A stretch of 64,000 bases of DNA from an uncultured Candidatus Saccharibacteria bacterium (GCA_965231085.1 OZ246413.1:539234-603233); one strand, 5' to 3'. Numbered from the stretch's first letter, positions 18,819 through 36,918 are shown. Made by a program: numbers and translations. Notes: a model not told the origin generated them from the letters alone.

Positions 18819-20024
18819 ATGCTTTCAACCGCCCATGCGTTAATTACTCGAGCCGGTAAAAAACTTGGCCTAGACGATAACACTATTAAGCAACTTATAA
18901 AGATTAATGAAGAACATTTATTTGATATTAAACTTAATAACGGCAAAACTTATCCGGCCTACCGCGTACAGCACAACAACAAGCGTGGCCCTTATAAAGG
19001 CGGGATTCGTTTTCACCCAGAAGTTGACCTAGATGAAGTTAGAGCGCTTGCAACGCTAATGAGTTTTAAAACTGCTGTTGTTGGCCTACCCCTCGGCGGT
19101 GGCAAGGGGGGAGTCGGTGTAGATCCAAAAGACTTAAGTCACGCAGAACTCGAAGAGCTTAGCCGCAAATATGTGCAAGGTCTGCACCAACATATTGGCC
19201 CAGATAAAGACGTGCCAGCCCCAGACGTTAATACCACACCAGAAATTATCGACTGGATGGTTGATGAATACCAAAAATTAACTGGAGATAAAACTAAAGC
19301 TAGCTTTACTGGCAAGTCCGTTAGCAAAGGCGGCTCTCTTGGCCGTGATGCCGCGACTGGGCGCGGTGGTATGTTTGCCTTCCGTGAGCTCTTAAAACAT
19401 ATGAACAAATCCAATGAAAAGTTAACTTATGCCGTGCAAGGTTTTGGCAACGTTGGTTCATTTTTTGCGGTTCTGGCTGAAGAACTTCAGCCCAACTGGA
19501 AGCTGATCGCCGCCAGCGACTCTCAGGCAGCTGTGTTCTCAAAAAATGGCTTGAGTGCTAAGGATTTAGATAAATACAAACAAGAGCATGGCAGATTCTC
19601 CGACTTCAAGGCAGAAGGTGTGGAAATAATTAGCAACGAAAACTTACTCGCACTCGACGTTGACGTTTTGGTTTTAGCCGCTCTCGGGGACTCAGTAACA
19701 GAAAAAAATATGGCAAACGTTCAAGCTAAGTACATAGTCGAGCTTGCCAATGGCCCCGTTAATGAAAAAGCCTTTGATAAATTGGTTGCAGATGGAGCTA
19801 TTATTCTGCCTGACATTGTTGCCAATGCTGGTGGTGTAATTGTTAGCTACCTGGAGTGGGTGCAAAACAAAGCCGGCGAGCATTGGGACGAGCAGAAAGT
19901 TAATAACCAACTAGAGAACTATATGGTCAAAGCTATTGACGCCCTTTATAAAACTGCCGAGGAACAGAAAGTTACTCTAAAAGAAGCTGCATTCATAAAC
20001 GCCATAAAAAACCTGACAAACTAG
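18819..20024 (+). CDS. gdh: Glu/Leu/Phe/Val-family dehydrogenase (glutamate dehydrogenase-like)
   Basis: GPYKGGIRFHP, PLGGGKGG, Rossmann motif VQGFGNVG. AAGGAGGG SD lies upstream. Confidence 0.85.
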   Translation: MLSTAHALITRAGKKLGLDDNTIKQLIKINEEHLFDIKLNNGKTYPAYRVQHNNKRGPYKGGIRFHPEVDLDEVRALATLMSFKTAVVGLPLGGGKGGVGVDPKDLSHAELEELSRKYVQGLHQHIGPDKDVPAPDVNTTPEIIDWMVDEYQKLTGDKTKASFTGKSVSKGGSLGRDAATGRGGMFAFRELLKHMNKSNEKLTYAVQGFGNVGSFFAVLAEELQPNWKLIAASDSQAAVFSKNGLSAKDLDKYKQEHGRFSDFKAEGVEIISNENLLALDVDVLVLAALGDSVTEKNMANVQAKYIVELANGPVNEKAFDKLVADGAIILPDIVANAGGVIVSYLEWVQNKAGEHWDEQKVNNQLENYMVKAIDALYKTAEEQKVTLKEAAFINAIKNLTN

Positions 20025-29995: not shown

Positions 29996-30913
29996 ATGTC
30001 TCCAGATTCCACTCAGCCGCTGCAAACATTTAGTAACGATCCCCTGCCTGTACATGCTCCAGAGGCTGAAGAAAAAACAATGTATACGCCCCCTGCTAAA
30101 CCCACCGCTCATTCCGAGACAGAATATAAGTCTAACCCTTTCCTTGTTAGCATCAAGGGCCTCGTTACTATTTTACGCAACCCCGTACCAACCCTGATGA
30201 GTAGTTTGGTAGCCGTAATTGGATTTGTTGCATTTATCTCTTTGTACGTTTACACACTGGCTGCAAATTTGGCTGGCACCGATACTTTTTCAACAACCAT
30301 ATATATAACAATTGCTATCGTAGCCGTACTGTGCCTGCTAGTATCAACCGCAATGAATTATGCCGTTGCCGCAGCCTCTATAGATGGTCGTAGCATAGGA
30401 ACTAAGGAGGTCTTAAGAAGAGCTATGGCAAAATTATTGCCTTATCTAGTGCTACTGATATTGTTTGCTGCTGTCGTAATTATTGGTGGGATTTTACTGA
30501 TTATCCCCGGGATCTTTTTGCTCGGTCGCCTGGGGCTATCGCCAATAATCATGTTCCACGAAAATGTAGGCCCAATAAAATCTTTGCGTAGAAGTTTCTC
30601 TATGACCAAGGGTCACGCCATCGAAGTTTTTGCAGCACAAATAGTCGGGGCTATGTTAGCCGGCTATGGACTACTCATGGGAGCATGCTCGGCCTCACCG
30701 GCTACCGGTTGGTATGTCCAGCTTAAAAATCCACCTATTGAAAAGCGCAGGATACACTGGCTTAACTACCTGATCGCCCTGTTGGTGATTGCCTATTTTG
30801 GCGTAATAATTTACGGAGCTATAGTTAACCGAAACACTAGCTACGTGACGTCAACTCCAACAAGCAACAGCACTACACTGGACCTAAATAACACAAACTA
30901 CCTGAGTAATTAA
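29996..30913 (+). CDS. Hypothetical polytopic membrane protein
   Basis: 305-aa ORF with about 6 TM segments. AAGAGG SD before ATG. Confidence 0.6.
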   Translation: MSPDSTQPLQTFSNDPLPVHAPEAEEKTMYTPPAKPTAHSETEYKSNPFLVSIKGLVTILRNPVPTLMSSLVAVIGFVAFISLYVYTLAANLAGTDTFSTTIYITIAIVAVLCLLVSTAMNYAVAAASIDGRSIGTKEVLRRAMAKLLPYLVLLILFAAVVIIGGILLIIPGIFLLGRLGLSPIIMFHENVGPIKSLRRSFSMTKGHAIEVFAAQIVGAMLAGYGLLMGACSASPATGWYVQLKNPPIEKRRIHWLNYLIALLVIAYFGVIIYGAIVNRNTSYVTSTPTSNSTTLDLNNTNYLSN

Positions 30914-30932
30914 ACCTTCTTAGTTTCAAAAA

Positions 30933-31409
30933 CTAGCGGTGTTTTGACTTCCCGTGCTTGATGCTACCAAGCCAAACCAAAATGATACTAAATAACGAAC
31001 CGCTACCAATAATTAAAGCCTGGGCTTTTAGTATATTTGGCCACATTTTGGAGCTAGTAATATCAAACTGACCAGCTGAAGCCAGTAATGGACCGATTGT
31101 TAGAGCTAGCAAGCCACCGGCTAGGAGCGCCGTAATAAGTTGCATTAAAAAGGTAGCATCCTTGCCAGCAGATTTGTGTGTCAAAACAAGAGTGACAACA
31201 AAAGGCACAAAAACCAGGGCAATACCAAGAGTTTCGCTACTAACGGATAGGCTTGTTTGACTCAGTAGTTGCTTGAGATCGCCTATAACTGACGTGCTTA
31301 ATACGAAGCCAAGACACAAGACCAAGAAGCCAAGGGCCGCATTAGACTTTAGAAAAAAAGTTATGGCAAACGGTAGTAAAACCAATACTGCTAATGCTAA
31401 GTCTGGCAT
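30933..31409 (-). CDS. Hypothetical membrane protein
   Basis: 158-aa ORF, 4-5 TM segments. Confidence 0.55.
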   Translation of the reverse strand: MPDLALAVLVLLPFAITFFLKSNAALGFLVLCLGFVLSTSVIGDLKQLLSQTSLSVSSETLGIALVFVPFVVTLVLTHKSAGKDATFLMQLITALLAGGLLALTIGPLLASAGQFDITSSKMWPNILKAQALIIGSGSLFSIILVWLGSIKHGKSKHR

Positions 31410-31478
31410 GCCCCTATTCTACTCCAGTTTTATTAGAGAGAAAAATTTTGAATCTTGGACGAACGAGATAGAAGGAGC

Positions 31479-32393
31479 TTAGGCTCCTACTCTATCCTTG
31501 CGCTGCCGGGCCTTGGCATTTTGCTCTATGTACTCAAGCATTTTTTCGGCGACGTTGCGACCTGTGACCTTCTCGATACCAAAGCCAGGACTAGAATTTA
31601 CCTCTAGCACCAGAGGTCCTCGTTTTGAACGCATCATATCTACACCACAAATAGATAAGCCCATTGCTTTGGCAGCTTTAATTGCCACACGTTTTTCTTC
31701 GTCAGTGAGTTTAACAGAAGTACCTTCCCCGCCTTGGTGTAGGTTGGAACGAAACTCATCAGTATTTAGATTTTGTCTTTTCATACTAGCAACAACCTTA
31801 CCGCCAACAACTATGGCTCGAATGTCAGTTCCGGCTGATTCCTCGATATACTCTTGTAGCAAGATGTTGGTTCCGTCATCATCATTAAGTGAAAAAGCCT
31901 GCAATACTGATCTGGCAGCTTTACGCGTTTCGGCTAATACAACACCACGGCCATGAGTTCCGCTAGCAAGCTTGATTATCACTGGTGGCCCACCAACTTC
32001 CTCTACCAAAGTGTCTGAGTCGGCAATACCACGAGAAAACACTGTTTTTGGGATACCAATACCGGCCCTAGCCAGTAGTTGAGTAGCTCGAAGTTTATCG
32101 CGAGAGCGAACAATGGCTATAGAACTAGCTGTGGTAAATACTCCTTGCATCTCAAATTGGCGAACAATGGCTGTACCGTAGCGAGTATAGCTTGAAGCAA
32201 TCCGAGGGATAATAGCGTCGAAGCCTTTTAGCTCTTCGCCGTTATATATAACAACCGGGTTATTCTTCTCGATTCTGGCTTCACATTGAATATAGTTAAT
32301 AACCTCAACTTCGTGACCGCGCTTGATTGCTTCTTTTTTAAGCCGTCTGGTTGAGTAATTACCCGGACCTTTTGATAGGATTGCTATTCTCAT
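31479..32393 (-). CDS. rimK: RimK-family ATP-grasp alpha-L-glutamate ligase
   Basis: MRIAILS...STRRL, VIIKLASGTHGRGVVL, EFRSNLHQGG, LEVNSSPG are canonical RimK motifs. Confidence 0.85.
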   Translation of the reverse strand: MRIAILSKGPGNYSTRRLKKEAIKRGHEVEVINYIQCEARIEKNNPVVIYNGEELKGFDAIIPRIASSYTRYGTAIVRQFEMQGVFTTASSIAIVRSRDKLRATQLLARAGIGIPKTVFSRGIADSDTLVEEVGGPPVIIKLASGTHGRGVVLAETRKAARSVLQAFSLNDDDGTNILLQEYIEESAGTDIRAIVVGGKVVASMKRQNLNTDEFRSNLHQGGEGTSVKLTDEEKRVAIKAAKAMGLSICGVDMMRSKRGPLVLEVNSSPGFGIEKVTGRNVAEKMLEYIEQNAKARQRKDRVGA

Positions 32394-32899
32394 TCTTCTG
32401 CCTCTTCCTCATCTTTAGGGAACGATACCCCATATTGTTTCTTAAGCTCAACCCTGTCGACACTTGTTTCGAAAGTATCAACTAAAAATCGACCATTTAA
32501 CATTTTTCTACCGATTAATATTGGGTAAATCTTTTTGCTTCTATCGGCCAGGGTGTAACTGGCCAAAAAAACTTTTGGTCCAAGTTTTGTTCTAAGTTTG
32601 ACCTCGTACCTATGCTCTTTATGGCCAAAAGAATTAGCAATTTCTACCTTTTTAAATTTATCAGTGCTAACTTTAACACTTATGCCACCAAACATAGGGT
32701 GCCCACCAAATAATTCAAAGGTTAGTGTGTTTGTTGCAGAATTTAAGTGAATATTCGAGGCATGAATTGCAGACCGATACGCACCGGTATCAGTCTTAGC
32801 GGGGATGTTCTTAACGTCCAGATCAACTAGGCTAAGCTCTTCAGCCCGACCAATGATGACCTTATGAAAATCGCTTCGCTTTTTCATTGCTGCCTCCAA
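32390..32899 (-). CDS. Retropepsin-like aspartic protease (DUF785 / RimB-like, 'ATP-dependent zinc protease' family)
   Basis: IPAKTDTGAYRSAIH contains the D-T-G aspartic signature. 4-nt overlap with rimK. Confidence 0.65.
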   Translation of the reverse strand: MEAAMKKRSDFHKVIIGRAEELSLVDLDVKNIPAKTDTGAYRSAIHASNIHLNSATNTLTFELFGGHPMFGGISVKVSTDKFKKVEIANSFGHKEHRYEVKLRTKLGPKVFLASYTLADRSKKIYPILIGRKMLNGRFLVDTFETSVDRVELKKQYGVSFPKDEEEAEE

Positions 32900-32989
32900 T
32901 ATAATCTTAATATACTAATAATGGTAATGTTTCTTTTAACGATCTTTTTGAACTGGATAATTATAGAATAAAGAGTATAATAAGTCAAT

Positions 32990-34228
32990 ATGTATAAGTT
33001 CTTAATCGTTGGTAAAAACTTTTCAGGCCTCAAGGACAAGATCCTCGAAAGAGGAGATGATTATATTTTGCTGCAAGATGTACTGGCTACCAAATTCCCA
33101 GATAAAAAAATGAAGCGACGGATAGTGGCTGACTTTAGCACTAAAGAAAGTCTGCTCGAGTCCGTTAAGCCGCTCAAAAACAAAATTGACGGTGTTATTA
33201 CCAGCTATGAAAATTATGTGCTCCCTACCGCATGGGTGGCCGAGTACCTTGAACTCCCCGGGATGCCTATTGAGTCTGCCGAAGCATGCACCGATAAATA
33301 CCTAATGCGTCAGCTTTTTTCTAAGGCTCCAAGAAAAATTAGCCCCGATTTTGCTGTCGTAAAATCACGTCAGGAGTTGGAAGATTTTGCTGCAAGTCAC
33401 AATTTTCCACTGATTCTCAAACCGGCTAATCTGCAAAAAAGTTTACTTGTTACTAAGGCTCATAATCATCAGGAGTTAATCAAAAATTACGAAAAAACTC
33501 TTAAAAACATAGGTGACACCTACACCAAGTACGCTCCTAGTCGCAAGCCAAAACTTATAATTGAAGAGTTTATGGAAGGACCAATTTTTTCTGTCGATGC
33601 TTACGTAGACGCCAGCGGACAACCTCACGTTTTGGATCAAGTTGTAGACTATCAAACTGGATACGATATTGGCTACGACGACAACTTCCATTACAGCCGC
33701 TTACTGCCAAGCCGCTTGAGCACCCATGACCAACAAGCTATTAGGGACACTGCTGCTCTTGGCTGCAAAACCTTAGGTATGAAAAGCTCCTCGGCCCACG
33801 TCGAGATTATTATGACCGCTGACGGGCCAAGAATTGTAGAAATTGGTGCACGTAATGGTGGATACCGTGAACGAATGCATAAATTGGCCAACGGCATTGA
33901 TATATATAATCTAGCCTTGGACAATTCCTTAGGGAAGCCGATAGATGTTAGAGCAACTAAAAATGAGCCTTGTGCTGTACTGGAACTTTTTCCAAAAGAA
34001 CCAGGTATTTTTGTAGGTATCGCCAACCAGGAAAAGCTTGAAGATCTAGACTCCCTAGCATACTTTGCCCTTAAACAACCACTCGGTAAATTTGTTGGCA
34101 AGTCTTCAGATGGCTACAAAATGTGCGCTATTATAATTTTGCATAACCAAAATCAGGATAGGTTTAGCCAAGATTTGGTTTTCGTTAACTCGGAAGTCTT
34201 TGTTAAAACAAAACCCCAAGCTATTTAG
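32990..34228 (+). CDS. ATP-grasp carboxylate-amine (L-amino-acid) ligase-like protein
   Basis: FPLILKPANLQKS, IIEEFMEG, VEIGARNGG fit the ATP-grasp_4/L-amino-acid ligase architecture. Confidence 0.7.
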   Translation: MYKFLIVGKNFSGLKDKILERGDDYILLQDVLATKFPDKKMKRRIVADFSTKESLLESVKPLKNKIDGVITSYENYVLPTAWVAEYLELPGMPIESAEACTDKYLMRQLFSKAPRKISPDFAVVKSRQELEDFAASHNFPLILKPANLQKSLLVTKAHNHQELIKNYEKTLKNIGDTYTKYAPSRKPKLIIEEFMEGPIFSVDAYVDASGQPHVLDQVVDYQTGYDIGYDDNFHYSRLLPSRLSTHDQQAIRDTAALGCKTLGMKSSSAHVEIIMTADGPRIVEIGARNGGYRERMHKLANGIDIYNLALDNSLGKPIDVRATKNEPCAVLELFPKEPGIFVGIANQEKLEDLDSLAYFALKQPLGKFVGKSSDGYKMCAIIILHNQNQDRFSQDLVFVNSEVFVKTKPQAI

Positions 34229-35096
34229 CTAATAGATAGTCAATCATTTGGTCGGATATATTGGTGCCGGTTATTTCCTGTGCTCTAGCAAAATTACATG
34301 GATAATTGAGTTCAGCAAGATATGGCTTACCGCTGATTTTATCAATCAATACGTCGGCTCCTCCGAATTCTCTACCTTTAATTTTTGAAGCGGCGACAGC
34401 GATCGCCTCTATTTCATCAGAAAACTTAGCAGGTTTTACTTGAGGTGTATCTGTGGCATTAGTTCTAAAATCATTTGCAGGCTTTATGTATTCAATTCTA
34501 TCTATTACTCGGTCGCCGAGGACAATTAACCGAGCATGCCGATAATCTTCTATGTATTTTCTTAAAACGTAATAAATGCACTCGTTATCCTCCAGCGAAC
34601 TAAGAAGGTCTTTAAGTTCACCTGGGTTTTGTATGAGTCTCACCCCTTTGCCGTGGGACAGTCCCGTGCGCTTTAAAACAGCCGGAAAACCATCTATCGC
34701 GTCTAGCCTGCTATTCAACTCCTCTTCAGAAAAATCTTTCCATAAAGCGTCAAGGTAGAGAGTAGGGATAATTGGTATCCCAGCCATCTGAAAAGCCACT
34801 GTTTCGCCCCAAGGCAATGATACCCTGATATTATTACTTGGTATAAAAAAACTTCTGGGCCTAAATTCGGAATTTCTGAGAGTTAAACTAAGTTCTATCA
34901 TCTTGGCTTTTACACCCATTTGTAATCGGTATAAAATGTCTTCTTTGGTCGTTTTGAATTTGAAAATATCATCAATTGGTAGTTCGTCTACGAAAATTTT
35001 CTTTACTTCAAGGTTTTTGCGGCTAGCCGACTCAACTAGCATGGTCTCAGCTTGGTAATTTTCAGGGTTGGTTGATGTTATTAGAAGTAGCGCCAC
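34221..35096 (-). CDS. Second RimK-like ATP-grasp ligase paralog (GTG start)
   Basis: FPAVLKRTGLSHGKGVRL, DFRTN, AELNYPCNF parallel RimK motifs. Converges on and overlaps the preceding gene by 8 nt. Confidence 0.65.
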   Translation of the reverse strand: MALLLITSTNPENYQAETMLVESASRKNLEVKKIFVDELPIDDIFKFKTTKEDILYRLQMGVKAKMIELSLTLRNSEFRPRSFFIPSNNIRVSLPWGETVAFQMAGIPIIPTLYLDALWKDFSEEELNSRLDAIDGFPAVLKRTGLSHGKGVRLIQNPGELKDLLSSLEDNECIYYVLRKYIEDYRHARLIVLGDRVIDRIEYIKPANDFRTNATDTPQVKPAKFSDEIEAIAVAASKIKGREFGGADVLIDKISGKPYLAELNYPCNFARAQEITGTNISDQMIDYLLAK

Positions 35097-35204
35097 TTAT
35101 TTCTGCGCCTTTAGAACATGCGTAAAAGTTAGCCAAAGGACAATACCCAAAACCAGAACAATTGCAATCAGCATTGGTATAAAACCTTTTTGATTTTTGT
35201 TCAT
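35097..35204 (-). CDS. Candidate 35-aa single-TM peptide immediately upstream of the ATP-grasp gene
   Basis: Hand translation gives MNKNQKGFIPMLIAIVLVLGIVLWLTFTHVLKAQK*. Its TAA is directly followed by the GTG start of 34221-35096. Confidence 0.3.
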   Translation of the reverse strand: MNKNQKGFIPMLIAIVLVLGIVLWLTFTHVLKAQK

Positions 35205-35243
35205 ATAACTACATTATGCATTCTTTTCGCACACAAATAAACA

Positions 35244-36350
35244 CTAACTAAACAGGCCTTTTTTGCCCTCTGTATGTTTTAGTTGCTCTAGTAATTCTTT
35301 TTGTGCTGTACTTAATTTGGTTGGGGTATCAACAACTATCGTGACAATGTGAGCGCCTCGAGTTGATTTATTGAGGTGCGGCACCCCATGGCCAGATAAC
35401 TTAAAGTCAGTTCCACTTTGCGTACCTGGTGGCACCTTCATTCGGACTTTTCCATCTACCGTATTAACCTCAATTTCAGCACCAAGAGCGGCATCGACCA
35501 TAGGCACGTGCTCACTCGACAAAACAAGGTCGCCCTCGCGGGTAAATTTTTTGTGAGGCTTTACTTTAACGTTTACATATAAGTCGCCTTTGGGCCCGTT
35601 GGCCATTGCTTCCCCGTGTTCTCTAAGCCTAATTGTGGCTCCGTCATCAATGCCGGCAGGAACTTTGAGTTTAATGGTCTGATTGCGTCGTTCTGTGCCC
35701 TTGCCGTGACAGACCGTGCAGATCTTTTCGGCTACTTTGCCTGTGGCTTTACATGTCGGGCAGGGTGCCGCCTGTTTTATATTGCCAAAAACTGTGCGCA
35801 TAACATTGGTTACCTGACCTTCGCCCTTACAGTTATCGCAAGTTTTTAGCTCGTGGCCAGGCTCGGCCGTAGTGCCTTTGCAATGGTTGCAGACATCTTC
35901 CATATTAAGCTTCATATCAATCTCGGTACCAAAAATTGCTTGGTCAAATGTTACTTCAACATCGGTTTCAACATCGCGACCACGGTTTGAGCGTTGTCCG
36001 CTGCCTCCGCCACCAAAAAAATTACCAAAAATATCACCTAACCCAAGGTCGCCAAAATCGAAATTGATGTTTTCGCCGCCCGAGCTAAAACCACCAAAAC
36101 CGCCACCAAAAGGATTACCATCGCTGGCCGCACTCGAACCAACCCCGGCATGGCCGAATTGGTCGTAACGTTGGCGCTTACTGGAGTCTTTTAGGACCTC
36201 GTAGGCTTCATTGAGTTCTTTGAATTTAGTCTCATCTCCGCCGCGATCTGGATGGTGTTCAACCGCCGCCCGACGATACGCTTTTTTTATTTCGTCATCA
36301 CTAGCGTTCTTACCTACACCAAGAACTTCGTAGTAATCACGTTTACTCAT
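35244..36350 (-). CDS. dnaJ: Chaperone DnaJ
   Basis: J domain [12 protein letters not shown]...HPD, G/F region, four CxxCxGxG zinc motifs. Start moved to ATG 36350. Confidence 0.95.
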
Positions 36351-36918
36351 TGGCCCATCTCGCTTCGTCAGCTTCTTCCGCTCTTCGCACCTCGGCGTCA
36401 AATCCCTCGGCACTTTGAGTCGATGCCTGTCGTTTGGATCGTTCTTCAATAGCAGCTTCTGATAAGCGAAGAGCTTCGTCAAAATCTTCTTGTGTAATTG
36501 GGCGAGTATTAAACCTTAGGGCCTTGCTCTCTTCTAGCCCAACTATCTTCTCGGTTACTTCCCCTGCTTGTGGCTTAACCAAATCAAACTCATATGTCAC
36601 AGCCTTGTGTGCTCCTTCTGGTAGCACTGACTTGGCAACTACTGAGTATCTTGCAGTTCCAGAAAGGTCCCTTAGGTAACTAAAGTCAGCGTCTCCCTCG
36701 TCTCCGATTTTTTCGCTAGTTATGTTGTAGTCTTTCATGATTGGTAGGCCGTCGTCCCCCAAGGTTAGCGGCTTCTGCAATAACTGAAGAATATTTTTGG
36801 CTATTTGTTCCTGGATGGTAAGCTCTGGCTCCCAGTCCCCCGATGGAACAGGTGTTTTACTATCTGGCGAAGCTGGTTGCAAGTCGGCTGGCTGTGGCTG
36901 CCATTTTTTTTCTGTCAT
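36343..36918 (-). CDS. Hypothetical acidic protein embedded between dnaK and dnaJ (191 aa)
   Basis: Start overlaps the dnaK stop (TAATG, 36916-36920). Stop overlaps the dnaJ start (ATGAGTAA, 36343-36350). No recognised motif. Confidence 0.65.

Follow-up and report, generated by a model that had tools for sequence, protein, structure and literature searches.

Genes for the glutamate ligase RimK and for a RimB-like peptidase, carried on a 64,000-nucleotide (nt) stretch of DNA from an uncultured Candidatus Saccharibacteria bacterium (the whole of which is termed the window), probably form a functional module with a divergently transcribed gene for another ATP-grasp ligase. In the arrangement that we favor, the rimB-like gene heads an operon that continues through rimK and, where present, a DUF192 gene to a gene for a membrane protein, and the oppositely oriented ligase gene shares with this operon a promoter region of about 90 bp. 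The divergent partner is a 412-amino acid (aa) enzyme with the fold of L-amino-acid ligases (LALs), termed G412 here; a 291 aa RimK-like paralog encoded next to it is termed R291. Fusions in two orders, adjacency that survives both rearrangement and the loss of rimK, and correlated divergence together point to the G412-type ligase as the closest partner of the peptidase, in function and probably also in physical contact. A sequence-only reading of this DNA had proposed that RimK, the peptidase, both other ligases and a tiny transmembrane (TM) peptide constitute a system that tails and trims peptides or proteins. The fusions strengthen the idea of such a system, whereas R291 is not a conserved part of the cluster and the tiny TM peptide goes with dnaJ.

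Open reading frames (ORFs) of the window were taken from a six-frame ORF list, and their domains were scored against Pfam and NCBIfam models. The list reproduces the coordinates given earlier for all four genes (Table 1), both overlaps between them, the DTG motif of the peptidase and the 35 aa ORF, and the domain scores bear out the assignment of the products as RimK, a RimB-like DTG retropepsin, an LAL-like ligase and a divergent RimK paralog. Related loci were collected in two sets. The first, of 80 loci that are almost all from Saccharibacteria, came from a scan in which an alignment of G412 homologues was run against GTDB genomes, one for each species. A metagenome scan aimed at distant G412 relatives added 80 more, which again were mostly Saccharibacteria with the same synteny. 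Gene order in these loci was mapped by tblastn with the window proteins, and the gaps reported below are distances between match ends.

A divergent rimB-rimK pair lies directly upstream of G412 in 100 of 114 distinct Saccharibacteria loci, the denominator being those with enough sequence upstream of G412 to be informative; the rimK-rimB-G412 core of the cluster proposed earlier is thus kept in relatives. Spacing within this block is tight. The gap between RimB and G412 measures 34-251 bp in 70 of the 73 loci of the first set (median 86 bp), and that between rimK and rimB has a median of 9 nt (69 loci). In contrast, both flanks vary by kilobases, from 6 to 7684 bp between G412 and dnaJ and from 262 to 5357 bp between comEC and rimK, and the block therefore stays intact amid fluid surroundings. 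Furthermore, RimB adjoins G412 in three loci in which no rimK was found (L022, L122 and L137), and where the genes have been rearranged (L061, L062 and L068) they still lie within 7 kb.

More direct evidence of partnership comes from at least six distinct proteins that join a G412-type ligase to a RimB-like domain, in both orders. One of these (P0267, 554 aa) consists of a G412-type ligase with a C-terminal PF05618 domain, and a search with this protein recovered four more full-length G412::RimB fusions (P0284, P0286, P0290 and P0293). Because the four are 43-87% identical to P0267, these fusions represent an established clade rather than a one-off event. On the two contigs examined (L087 and L170), rimK comes directly after the fusion gene and overlaps it by 4 nt, the context being the conserved dnaJ...comEC one. 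The reverse order, RimB::G412, is seen in P0187 (557 aa), wherein an N-terminal retropepsin domain (KIDTGA...VLIGLN) precedes the ligase. The P0187 gene resides on L088 in an rlo-like operon, together with genes for a seven-TM (7TM) transglutaminase-like protein and an ATPgrasp_ST ligase.

A fusion of another type occupies the G412 position in a further locus (L171 287-1498), where an R2K-type ATP-grasp::RimB protein (P0389) is followed by rimK, DUF192 and the membrane protein gene. Since P0389 replaces G412, the recurring theme is a second ATP-grasp ligase combined with RimB and RimK. RimB-like domains are thus paired with at least four classes of ATP-grasp enzyme, namely RimK, ATPgrasp_ST, LAL-type and R2K. 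Divergence from the window copies is likewise correlated between RimB and G412 (Spearman 0.45, n = 110 distinct loci), a comparison that ignores phylogeny, uses distance to a single reference and serves as supporting evidence only. Neither of the two divergences correlates positively with that of RimK, DnaJ or DnaK.

The rimB-rimK half of the module resembles a characterized system. RimB is a retropepsin-like endopeptidase that cleaves polyglutamate (poly-Glu) tails from RpsF (Little et al., 2025, PMC11957791). It also binds RimK, whose poly-alpha-Glu synthesis it stimulates; RimK with RimB makes free poly-alpha-Glu, and rimB co-occurs with rimK in many bacteria, where the two proteins are sometimes fused (PMC11957791). 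The window genes share with Pseudomonas rimABK the order rimB then rimK, translational coupling through a 4-nt overlap of the peptidase stop with the rimK start, a RimK with Glu-chain-binding residues, and a PF05618 peptidase with a DTG motif and without a signal peptide. Given the same gene order and coupling, the pair is a member of this known kind. Unlike rimABK, the window module has no gene for RimA (an EAL protein), its peptidase carries a conserved acidic C-terminal extension and scores far below the cutoff of the RimB model (see below), and the Saccharibacterial module adds an LAL-fold ligase together with membrane protein and DUF192 genes.

RimK of the window scores 197.4 bits against PF08443 and 127.9 bits against PF18030 (Rimk_N). 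It exceeds the cutoff of the NCBIfam rimK_fam model TIGR00768 (254.7 versus 143.4 bits) and falls 1.4 bits under that of the S6--Glu ligase equivalog PRK10446 (329.6 versus 331 bits). The protein aligns end to end with Pseudomonas aeruginosa RimK 7qyr (phmmer E 1.4e-93), with a roughly estimated identity of about 60%. The poly-Glu chain in the structure of the P. aeruginosa enzyme is contacted by S7, R8, S14, R64, S68, R189 and N262 (PMC10092738). All of these residues are identical in window RimK except R8, which is replaced by K. Because the residues that hold poly-alpha-glutamate are kept, RimK is expected to polymerize glutamate, either as a free peptide or starting from an acidic C-terminal acceptor. 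At a distance of 11 kb, the product of a glutamate dehydrogenase gene (ELFV_dehydrog; window 18819-20024, plus strand) might supply or consume the glutamate that RimK uses, in a genome with little amino-acid metabolism.

The peptidase gene can be read as a maximal ORF of 169 aa from a TTG codon. Gene callers applied to an identical public contig report 165 aa, and the probable start is the ATG at 32887, four codons inside the maximal ORF. The product matches PF05618, a family now named RimB-like, with 53.5 bits (cutoff 27) and has its DTG at residues 36-38, a D[TS]G motif that is present in 125 of 125 orthologues. Against NCBIfam models it scores 47.2 bits for RimB (cutoff 200) and 46 bits for RloA3. 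Both values are far below cutoff, and we therefore name the protein RimB-like rather than RimB. Its relatives in the Protein Data Bank (PDB) are 2pma and RloA 9g59. Neither a hydrophobic segment nor a signal peptide is present in the N-terminal sequence, and these features identify the protein as a RimB-type DTG retropepsin of the cytoplasm.

A second feature of the peptidase is an acidic C-terminal tail that lies beyond the retropepsin core. The match to the NCBIfam RimB model ends at residue 144, before this tail. Among 125 distinct stand-alone orthologues, 105 have [DE]EE within their last 30 residues, and P-x-[DE]-E-[ED] occurs 2-12 residues from the C-terminus in 93. The typical form in relatives is FPxDEEEGR, as compared with FPKDEEEAEE in the window, where the peptidase gene is the sole ORF among 77 whose product ends in two acidic residues. 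RimB recognizes runs of Glu and RimK extends C-terminal Glu, which makes it plausible that the tail might act as a pseudo-substrate, a self-processing site or a primer.

G412 belongs to a large family. A protein search returned 714 homologues, the best 120 of which are 59-73% identical to the window protein, and a profile search of 1.84 billion representatives gave 342 members at E<=1e-30. Identity across the loci is 48-64%, and many family members match LAL_C2. The AF2 model of G412 (pLDDT 90.1) is matched by Foldseek to the LAL BL00235 (TM-score 0.82), BacD (YwfE; 0.79) and RizA (0.71) at 17-20% sequence identity, and phmmer relates the sequence to 3vot (3.1e-18). According to this model, G412 has an LAL-type three-domain ATP-grasp fold, in which the invariant loop DYQTGYDIGYDDNFHYSR is the only segment of low confidence.

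The resemblance of G412 to LALs extends to fold and to the ATP-grasp_4 match. Unlike the characterized enzymes, however, G412 scores far below the cutoffs of the LAL equivalogs BacD (44.9 versus 850 bits) and DdaF (42.9 versus 840 bits), has no antibiotic-biosynthesis context, and is linked or fused to an endopeptidase. Membership of the ligases in well-characterized metabolic clades had been named earlier as the outcome that would count against a tailing system; models for Ddl, PurD, PurK, BacD and DdaF are all far below cutoff, and G412 was likewise rejected as a Ddl, PurD, PurK or CPS enzyme. Fusion to an endopeptidase speaks for a peptide or protein as the substrate of G412-type ligases, and a peptide would be at least as likely as two free L-amino acids.

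Other arrangements are found within the family. Two proteins of 768 aa, P0154 (L089 323-2629) and P0174, carry a C-terminal group-1 glycosyltransferase behind a ligase part that is 38-46% identical to window G412. A second G412-like match (27-31% identity) adjoins the core block in L056, L058, L158 and L163, where it occupies the variable slot on the dnaJ side of G412 (see below). In L056 and L058 this paralogous LAL-like ligase lies beside a RimK paralog (39-40% identity), such that the pairing of LAL and RimK is repeated.

LALs normally ligate free amino acids, and G412 could accordingly be an independent LAL that produces a free dipeptide or acts on an envelope- or sugar-linked carboxylate, adjoining the rim genes merely through conserved gene order. 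Only rimB-rimK would then constitute a system, one for polyglutamylation and trimming of bS6. We consider this explanation unlikely, and several observations nevertheless speak for it and against a three-gene module. For part of the family, the glycosyltransferase fusions hint at a substrate that is sugar-linked or belongs to the envelope. In five loci (L055, L063, L080, L101 and L106), neither rimB nor rimK lies within 4-8 kb of G412. The distant family member P0385 also stands alone, and therefore the association does not span the whole ATP-grasp_4 family. Saccharibacterial genomes are broadly collinear, with dnaJ, dnaK and comEC also broadly syntenic, and adjacency alone is thus weak evidence. 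The restrictions noted above on the divergence comparison weigh in the same direction.

Two further points count against the module as we picture it. Specificity for poly-Glu is assumed for the RimB-like protein, which reaches 47 bits where the RimB model demands 200. In addition, tblastn and phmmer with E. coli and Bacillus subtilis S6 detected no rpsF gene (encoding bS6) in the window or in about 165 fetched loci, and sequence extending beyond the window for 10 kb on one side and 3.5 kb on the other did not reach it. An independent G412 is hard to reconcile, however, with at least six distinct proteins in which a G412-type ligase and a RimB-like domain are joined in either order, or with the rimK gene that directly follows the fusion gene in L087 and L170. 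It also offers little reason for a block that stays tight between flanks that vary by kilobases, or for RimB adjoining G412 where rimK is missing. We therefore retain the module of peptidase, RimK and G412 as the favored reading.

The intergenic region between the divergent genes is AT-rich. A promoter scan identified face-to-face promoter-like sites, TTGACT-17-TATAAT on the minus strand (11/12 positions) and TGGATA-16-TATAAT on the plus strand (10/12). The TATAAT -10 box on the G412 side ends 8 nt before the ATG (window 32954-32992). The motif that runs into this ATG, GTCAATAT, is present in 22 of 71 intergenic stretches and TCAATATG in 24 of 71 from relatives; the mean GC content of these 71 stretches is 0.31, each including about 30-40 flanking coding bases per side. 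The short distance from the -10 box to the ATG, together with conservation of the motif, suggests that the G412 mRNA may be leaderless or have a very short leader.

Table 1. Positions of the module and of adjoining features in the window
Feature	Position	Strand	Basis or remark
Polytopic membrane protein, 158 aa, 4-5 predicted TM segments	30933-31409	-	ORF list
RimK, alpha-L-glutamate ligase (ATP-grasp), 304 aa	31479-32393	-	PF08443 + PF18030
RimB-like retropepsin-type aspartic endopeptidase	32390-32899	-	PF05618, DTG
Acidic C-terminal tail of the RimB-like protein, FPKDEEEAEE-COOH	32393-32422	-	extension past the retropepsin core
AT-rich divergent intergenic region, ~90 bp	32900-32989		face-to-face promoter-like sites
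G412, LAL-fold ATP-grasp ligase, 412 aa	32990-34228	+	PF13535 (ATP-grasp_4), 70 bits
R291, divergent RimK-superfamily ATP-grasp ligase, 291 aa, GTG start	34221-35096	-	PF08443, 62.7 bits
Tiny ORF, 35 aa, single TM, MNKNQKGFIPMLIAIVLVLGIVLWLTFTHVLKAQK	35097-35204	-	39 nt after dnaJ, abuts the R291 start

On the other side of rimK, 69 nt downstream and on the same strand, lies the gene for a 158 aa membrane protein for which no Pfam family and no recognizable transporter domain were found. In 88 of 116 loci, a profile search located its homologue on the same strand as rimK and at most 1.2 kb further downstream. Between the two genes, 62 of the 116 loci carry a DUF192 gene, which is absent from the window. 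The 158 aa gene is the probable last gene of the rimB-rimK operon, and with these genes the operon reaches beyond the coordinates considered in the sequence-only reading.

These operon members raise another explanation, by analogy with a second Pseudomonas system. The rloABC genes of P. aeruginosa encode a secreted retropepsin (RloA), a 7TM inactive transglutaminase (RloB) and an ATP-grasp enzyme (RloC), and the system affects the envelope and osmotic tolerance (PMC12239564). Conceivably, the Saccharibacterial module could make a secreted or envelope acidic peptide or polymer, for example wall-linked poly-alpha-glutamate, instead of modifying the ribosome, and the membrane protein and DUF192 would then serve in export or anchoring. 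The position of a polytopic membrane protein and of a signal-anchored DUF192 protein after rimK agrees with such a role, as do the free poly-alpha-Glu made by RimK with RimB, the glycosyltransferase fusions and the sortase genes of the neighboring slot (see below). Like rloABC, the module combines a retropepsin-like peptidase with an ATP-grasp ligase, and relatives of G412 (L088) and R291 (L002) are encoded in rlo-like operons beside an ATPgrasp_ST ligase and a 7TM transglutaminase-like protein. In the window, by contrast, there is neither a 7TM-transglutaminase gene nor an ATPgrasp_ST ligase, the peptidase has no signal peptide and resembles cytoplasmic RimB rather than secreted RloA, and the 158 aa protein has no recognizable transporter domain to suggest export. 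We therefore rate an envelope product as quite unlikely.

If the three-protein module operates as we favor, RimK would polymerize alpha-Glu, and G412 and RimK would perform two different ligation steps on one substrate, G412 adding, for example, a priming, capping or non-Glu residue that is beyond the reach of RimK. Like RimB acting on polyglutamylated RpsF in Pseudomonas, the peptidase would trim, edit or release the product, and it would contact both ligases. The acceptor could be bS6, an acidic peptide or polymer, whether free or exported, or the peptidase's own ...FPxDEEE tail. In a bolder and, in our judgment, doubtful version, G412 would be a peptide- or protein-tail ligase, not one for free amino acids, and in complex with the RimB-like protein and RimK would build and edit a mixed C-terminal tail; the system would be self-contained and autoregulated, with the peptidase tail as primer, pseudo-substrate or self-processing site. 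Such an autoregulated tailing machine might possibly be coupled to the membrane via the 158 aa protein.

Precedent for a peptidase working in complex with its ligase may be seen in the RimBK hybrids, such as DP2392 of Desulfotalea psychrophila, in which a RimB-like domain is likewise fused to an ATP-grasp ligase (PMC11957791). The Saccharibacterial fusions differ in using an LAL-fold ATP-grasp_4 or an R2K ligase and in being followed by a separate rimK gene. Other ATP-grasp systems are more distant. Window proteins reach about 82 bits against a cutoff of 850 for CphA of the cyanophycin system, and the ligases reach at most 27.9 bits against cutoffs of 350-425 for maturases of graspetides and other ribosomally synthesized and post-translationally modified peptides (RiPPs), where the only small ORF at hand is a dnaJ-tied TM peptide.

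RimK and RimB provide a recently characterized means of ribosome remodeling and poly-alpha-glutamate production that, to our knowledge, has been studied almost only in Pseudomonas and E. coli. The rimB-rimK pair is already known, whereas the LAL-fold third partner and its RimB-like fusions appear to be undescribed, as do the acidic tail, the membrane protein members of the operon and the Saccharibacterial hotspot of ligase and peptidase genes described below. Full-text literature searches for a connection of Saccharibacteria or Patescibacteria to RimK or ATP-grasp enzymes gave nothing relevant, the few papers retrieved being unrelated by title. Retention of the module across a host-dependent lineage with ultra-small genomes implies strong selection there. 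If our reading is correct, LAL-fold enzymes extend from dipeptide synthesis toward peptide or protein tailing, and RimB-type retropepsins would be editing partners of all four ATP-grasp classes named above.

The remaining genes of the cluster lie between G412 and dnaJ. The 3' end of R291 overlaps that of G412 by 8 nt, the two genes being convergent. A protein search with R291 returned 13 proteins including the window copy, the next best being 50% identical, and among the 80 loci of the genome collection only L005, L032 and L035 have a homologue, which in each case converges on the G412 end. With 12 relatives besides its own copy and so narrow a distribution, R291 is not a conserved member of the cluster that had been proposed. 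In the R291 family K142, R189, DFRTN, D248, E262 and N264 are invariant, and the N-terminal residues by which RimK binds poly-Glu are not kept. Because catalytic residues are kept and Glu-chain-binding residues are not, R291 is probably an active ligase with a substrate other than that of RimK. R291 is an accessory ligase whose presence varies between lineages; its gene occupies an insertion hotspot and probably shares a transcript with dnaJ and the tiny ORF. A distant relative is encoded in the rlo-like operon of L002.

This hotspot, the slot between G412 and dnaJ (loci L003-L082), is hypervariable. Of the 65 loci in which dnaJ was mapped, 33 have an ATP-grasp ORF there, with up to three per slot; in L061 and L062 this ORF is the relocated rimK itself. 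Stand-alone ligases like the G domain of cyanophycin synthetase are found in 21 loci (218-250 bits), along with RimK-family paralogs. The slot may further hold peptidases of family S51 (cyanophycinase/PepE-like; 11 loci), an unannotated protein of about 585-614 aa (10 loci), GGDEF proteins (9 loci), MATCAP/DUF1704-like proteins (8 loci) and sortases (6 loci). Three ATP-grasp genes in so small a genome had been thought disproportionate, yet this number is typical of the locus in Saccharibacteria at large, and relatives have as many as five. Adjacency to the chaperone operon, which had also drawn attention, is real but reflects a conserved gene order with the variable slot before dnaJ.

GGDEF diguanylate-cyclase genes occur near the module in L170 (1856-2869) and in a cluster (c4) represented in L054, L061, L064-L067, L071, L073 and L079, and the window slot between G412 and dnaJ has no GGDEF gene. 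In Pseudomonas, RimK is controlled by c-di-GMP and by the EAL protein RimA.

The tiny ORF belongs to a family of 35-47 aa proteins with an N-terminal GFI[PT]M[IL]I, a C-terminal RV..A[QN][HK] and a single TM segment. Family members were identified in 14 other loci (among them L008, L013, L023, L062, L068, L072, L077, L087, L118, L124, L132, L143 and L165), including loci without an R291-type gene. The resulting count of 15 convincing cases in 111 loci is a lower bound given that only ATG starts were considered. Most relatives lie 41-83 nt downstream of dnaJ, with a distance of 184 nt in L165. The window protein reaches 20.5 bits against DUF4006, under the cutoff of 22. Since the ORF is kept after dnaJ with or without ligase genes, it serves the ligases neither as a precursor nor as a substrate, and its former inclusion in the ligase cluster gives way to an association with dnaJ. 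That R291 and the tiny ORF form a graspetide-like maturation pair, as might be supposed from the tiny-ORF stop that abuts the R291 start on the same strand and from the ribosomal peptides that some ATP-grasp enzymes mature, is highly improbable and was largely refuted, with the ORF as a RiPP precursor, by conservation of the family downstream of dnaJ in loci without R291-type genes (L008, L087 and L143); moreover, the ORF encodes a hydrophobic TM segment without a core rich in Thr, Ser, Lys, Asp or Glu, R291 scores 15.5 bits against a graspetide maturase cutoff of 350, and its homologues in L032 and L035 have an ATP-grasp gene upstream instead of a small ORF.

The wider context of the window is Saccharibacteria-like, as judged from the shared synteny and from nearest homologues, all of which come from metagenome-assembled genomes (MAGs) of Saccharimonadales or Saccharibacteria. 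Neighboring genes are housekeeping genes (hrcA-grpE-dnaK-dnaJ, comEC, yebC, ruvCAB, lepA and murJ). An Rfam search of positions 30500-35600 for RNA elements gave no match. Within the chaperone operon, an acidic ORF of 191 aa (window 36343-36918, minus strand) lies between dnaK and dnaJ, its 3' end overlapping the longest dnaJ ORF. It has no match in Pfam or NCBIfam and no tblastn match in the loci of 80 relatives, and thus has the appearance of an insertion specific to this lineage.

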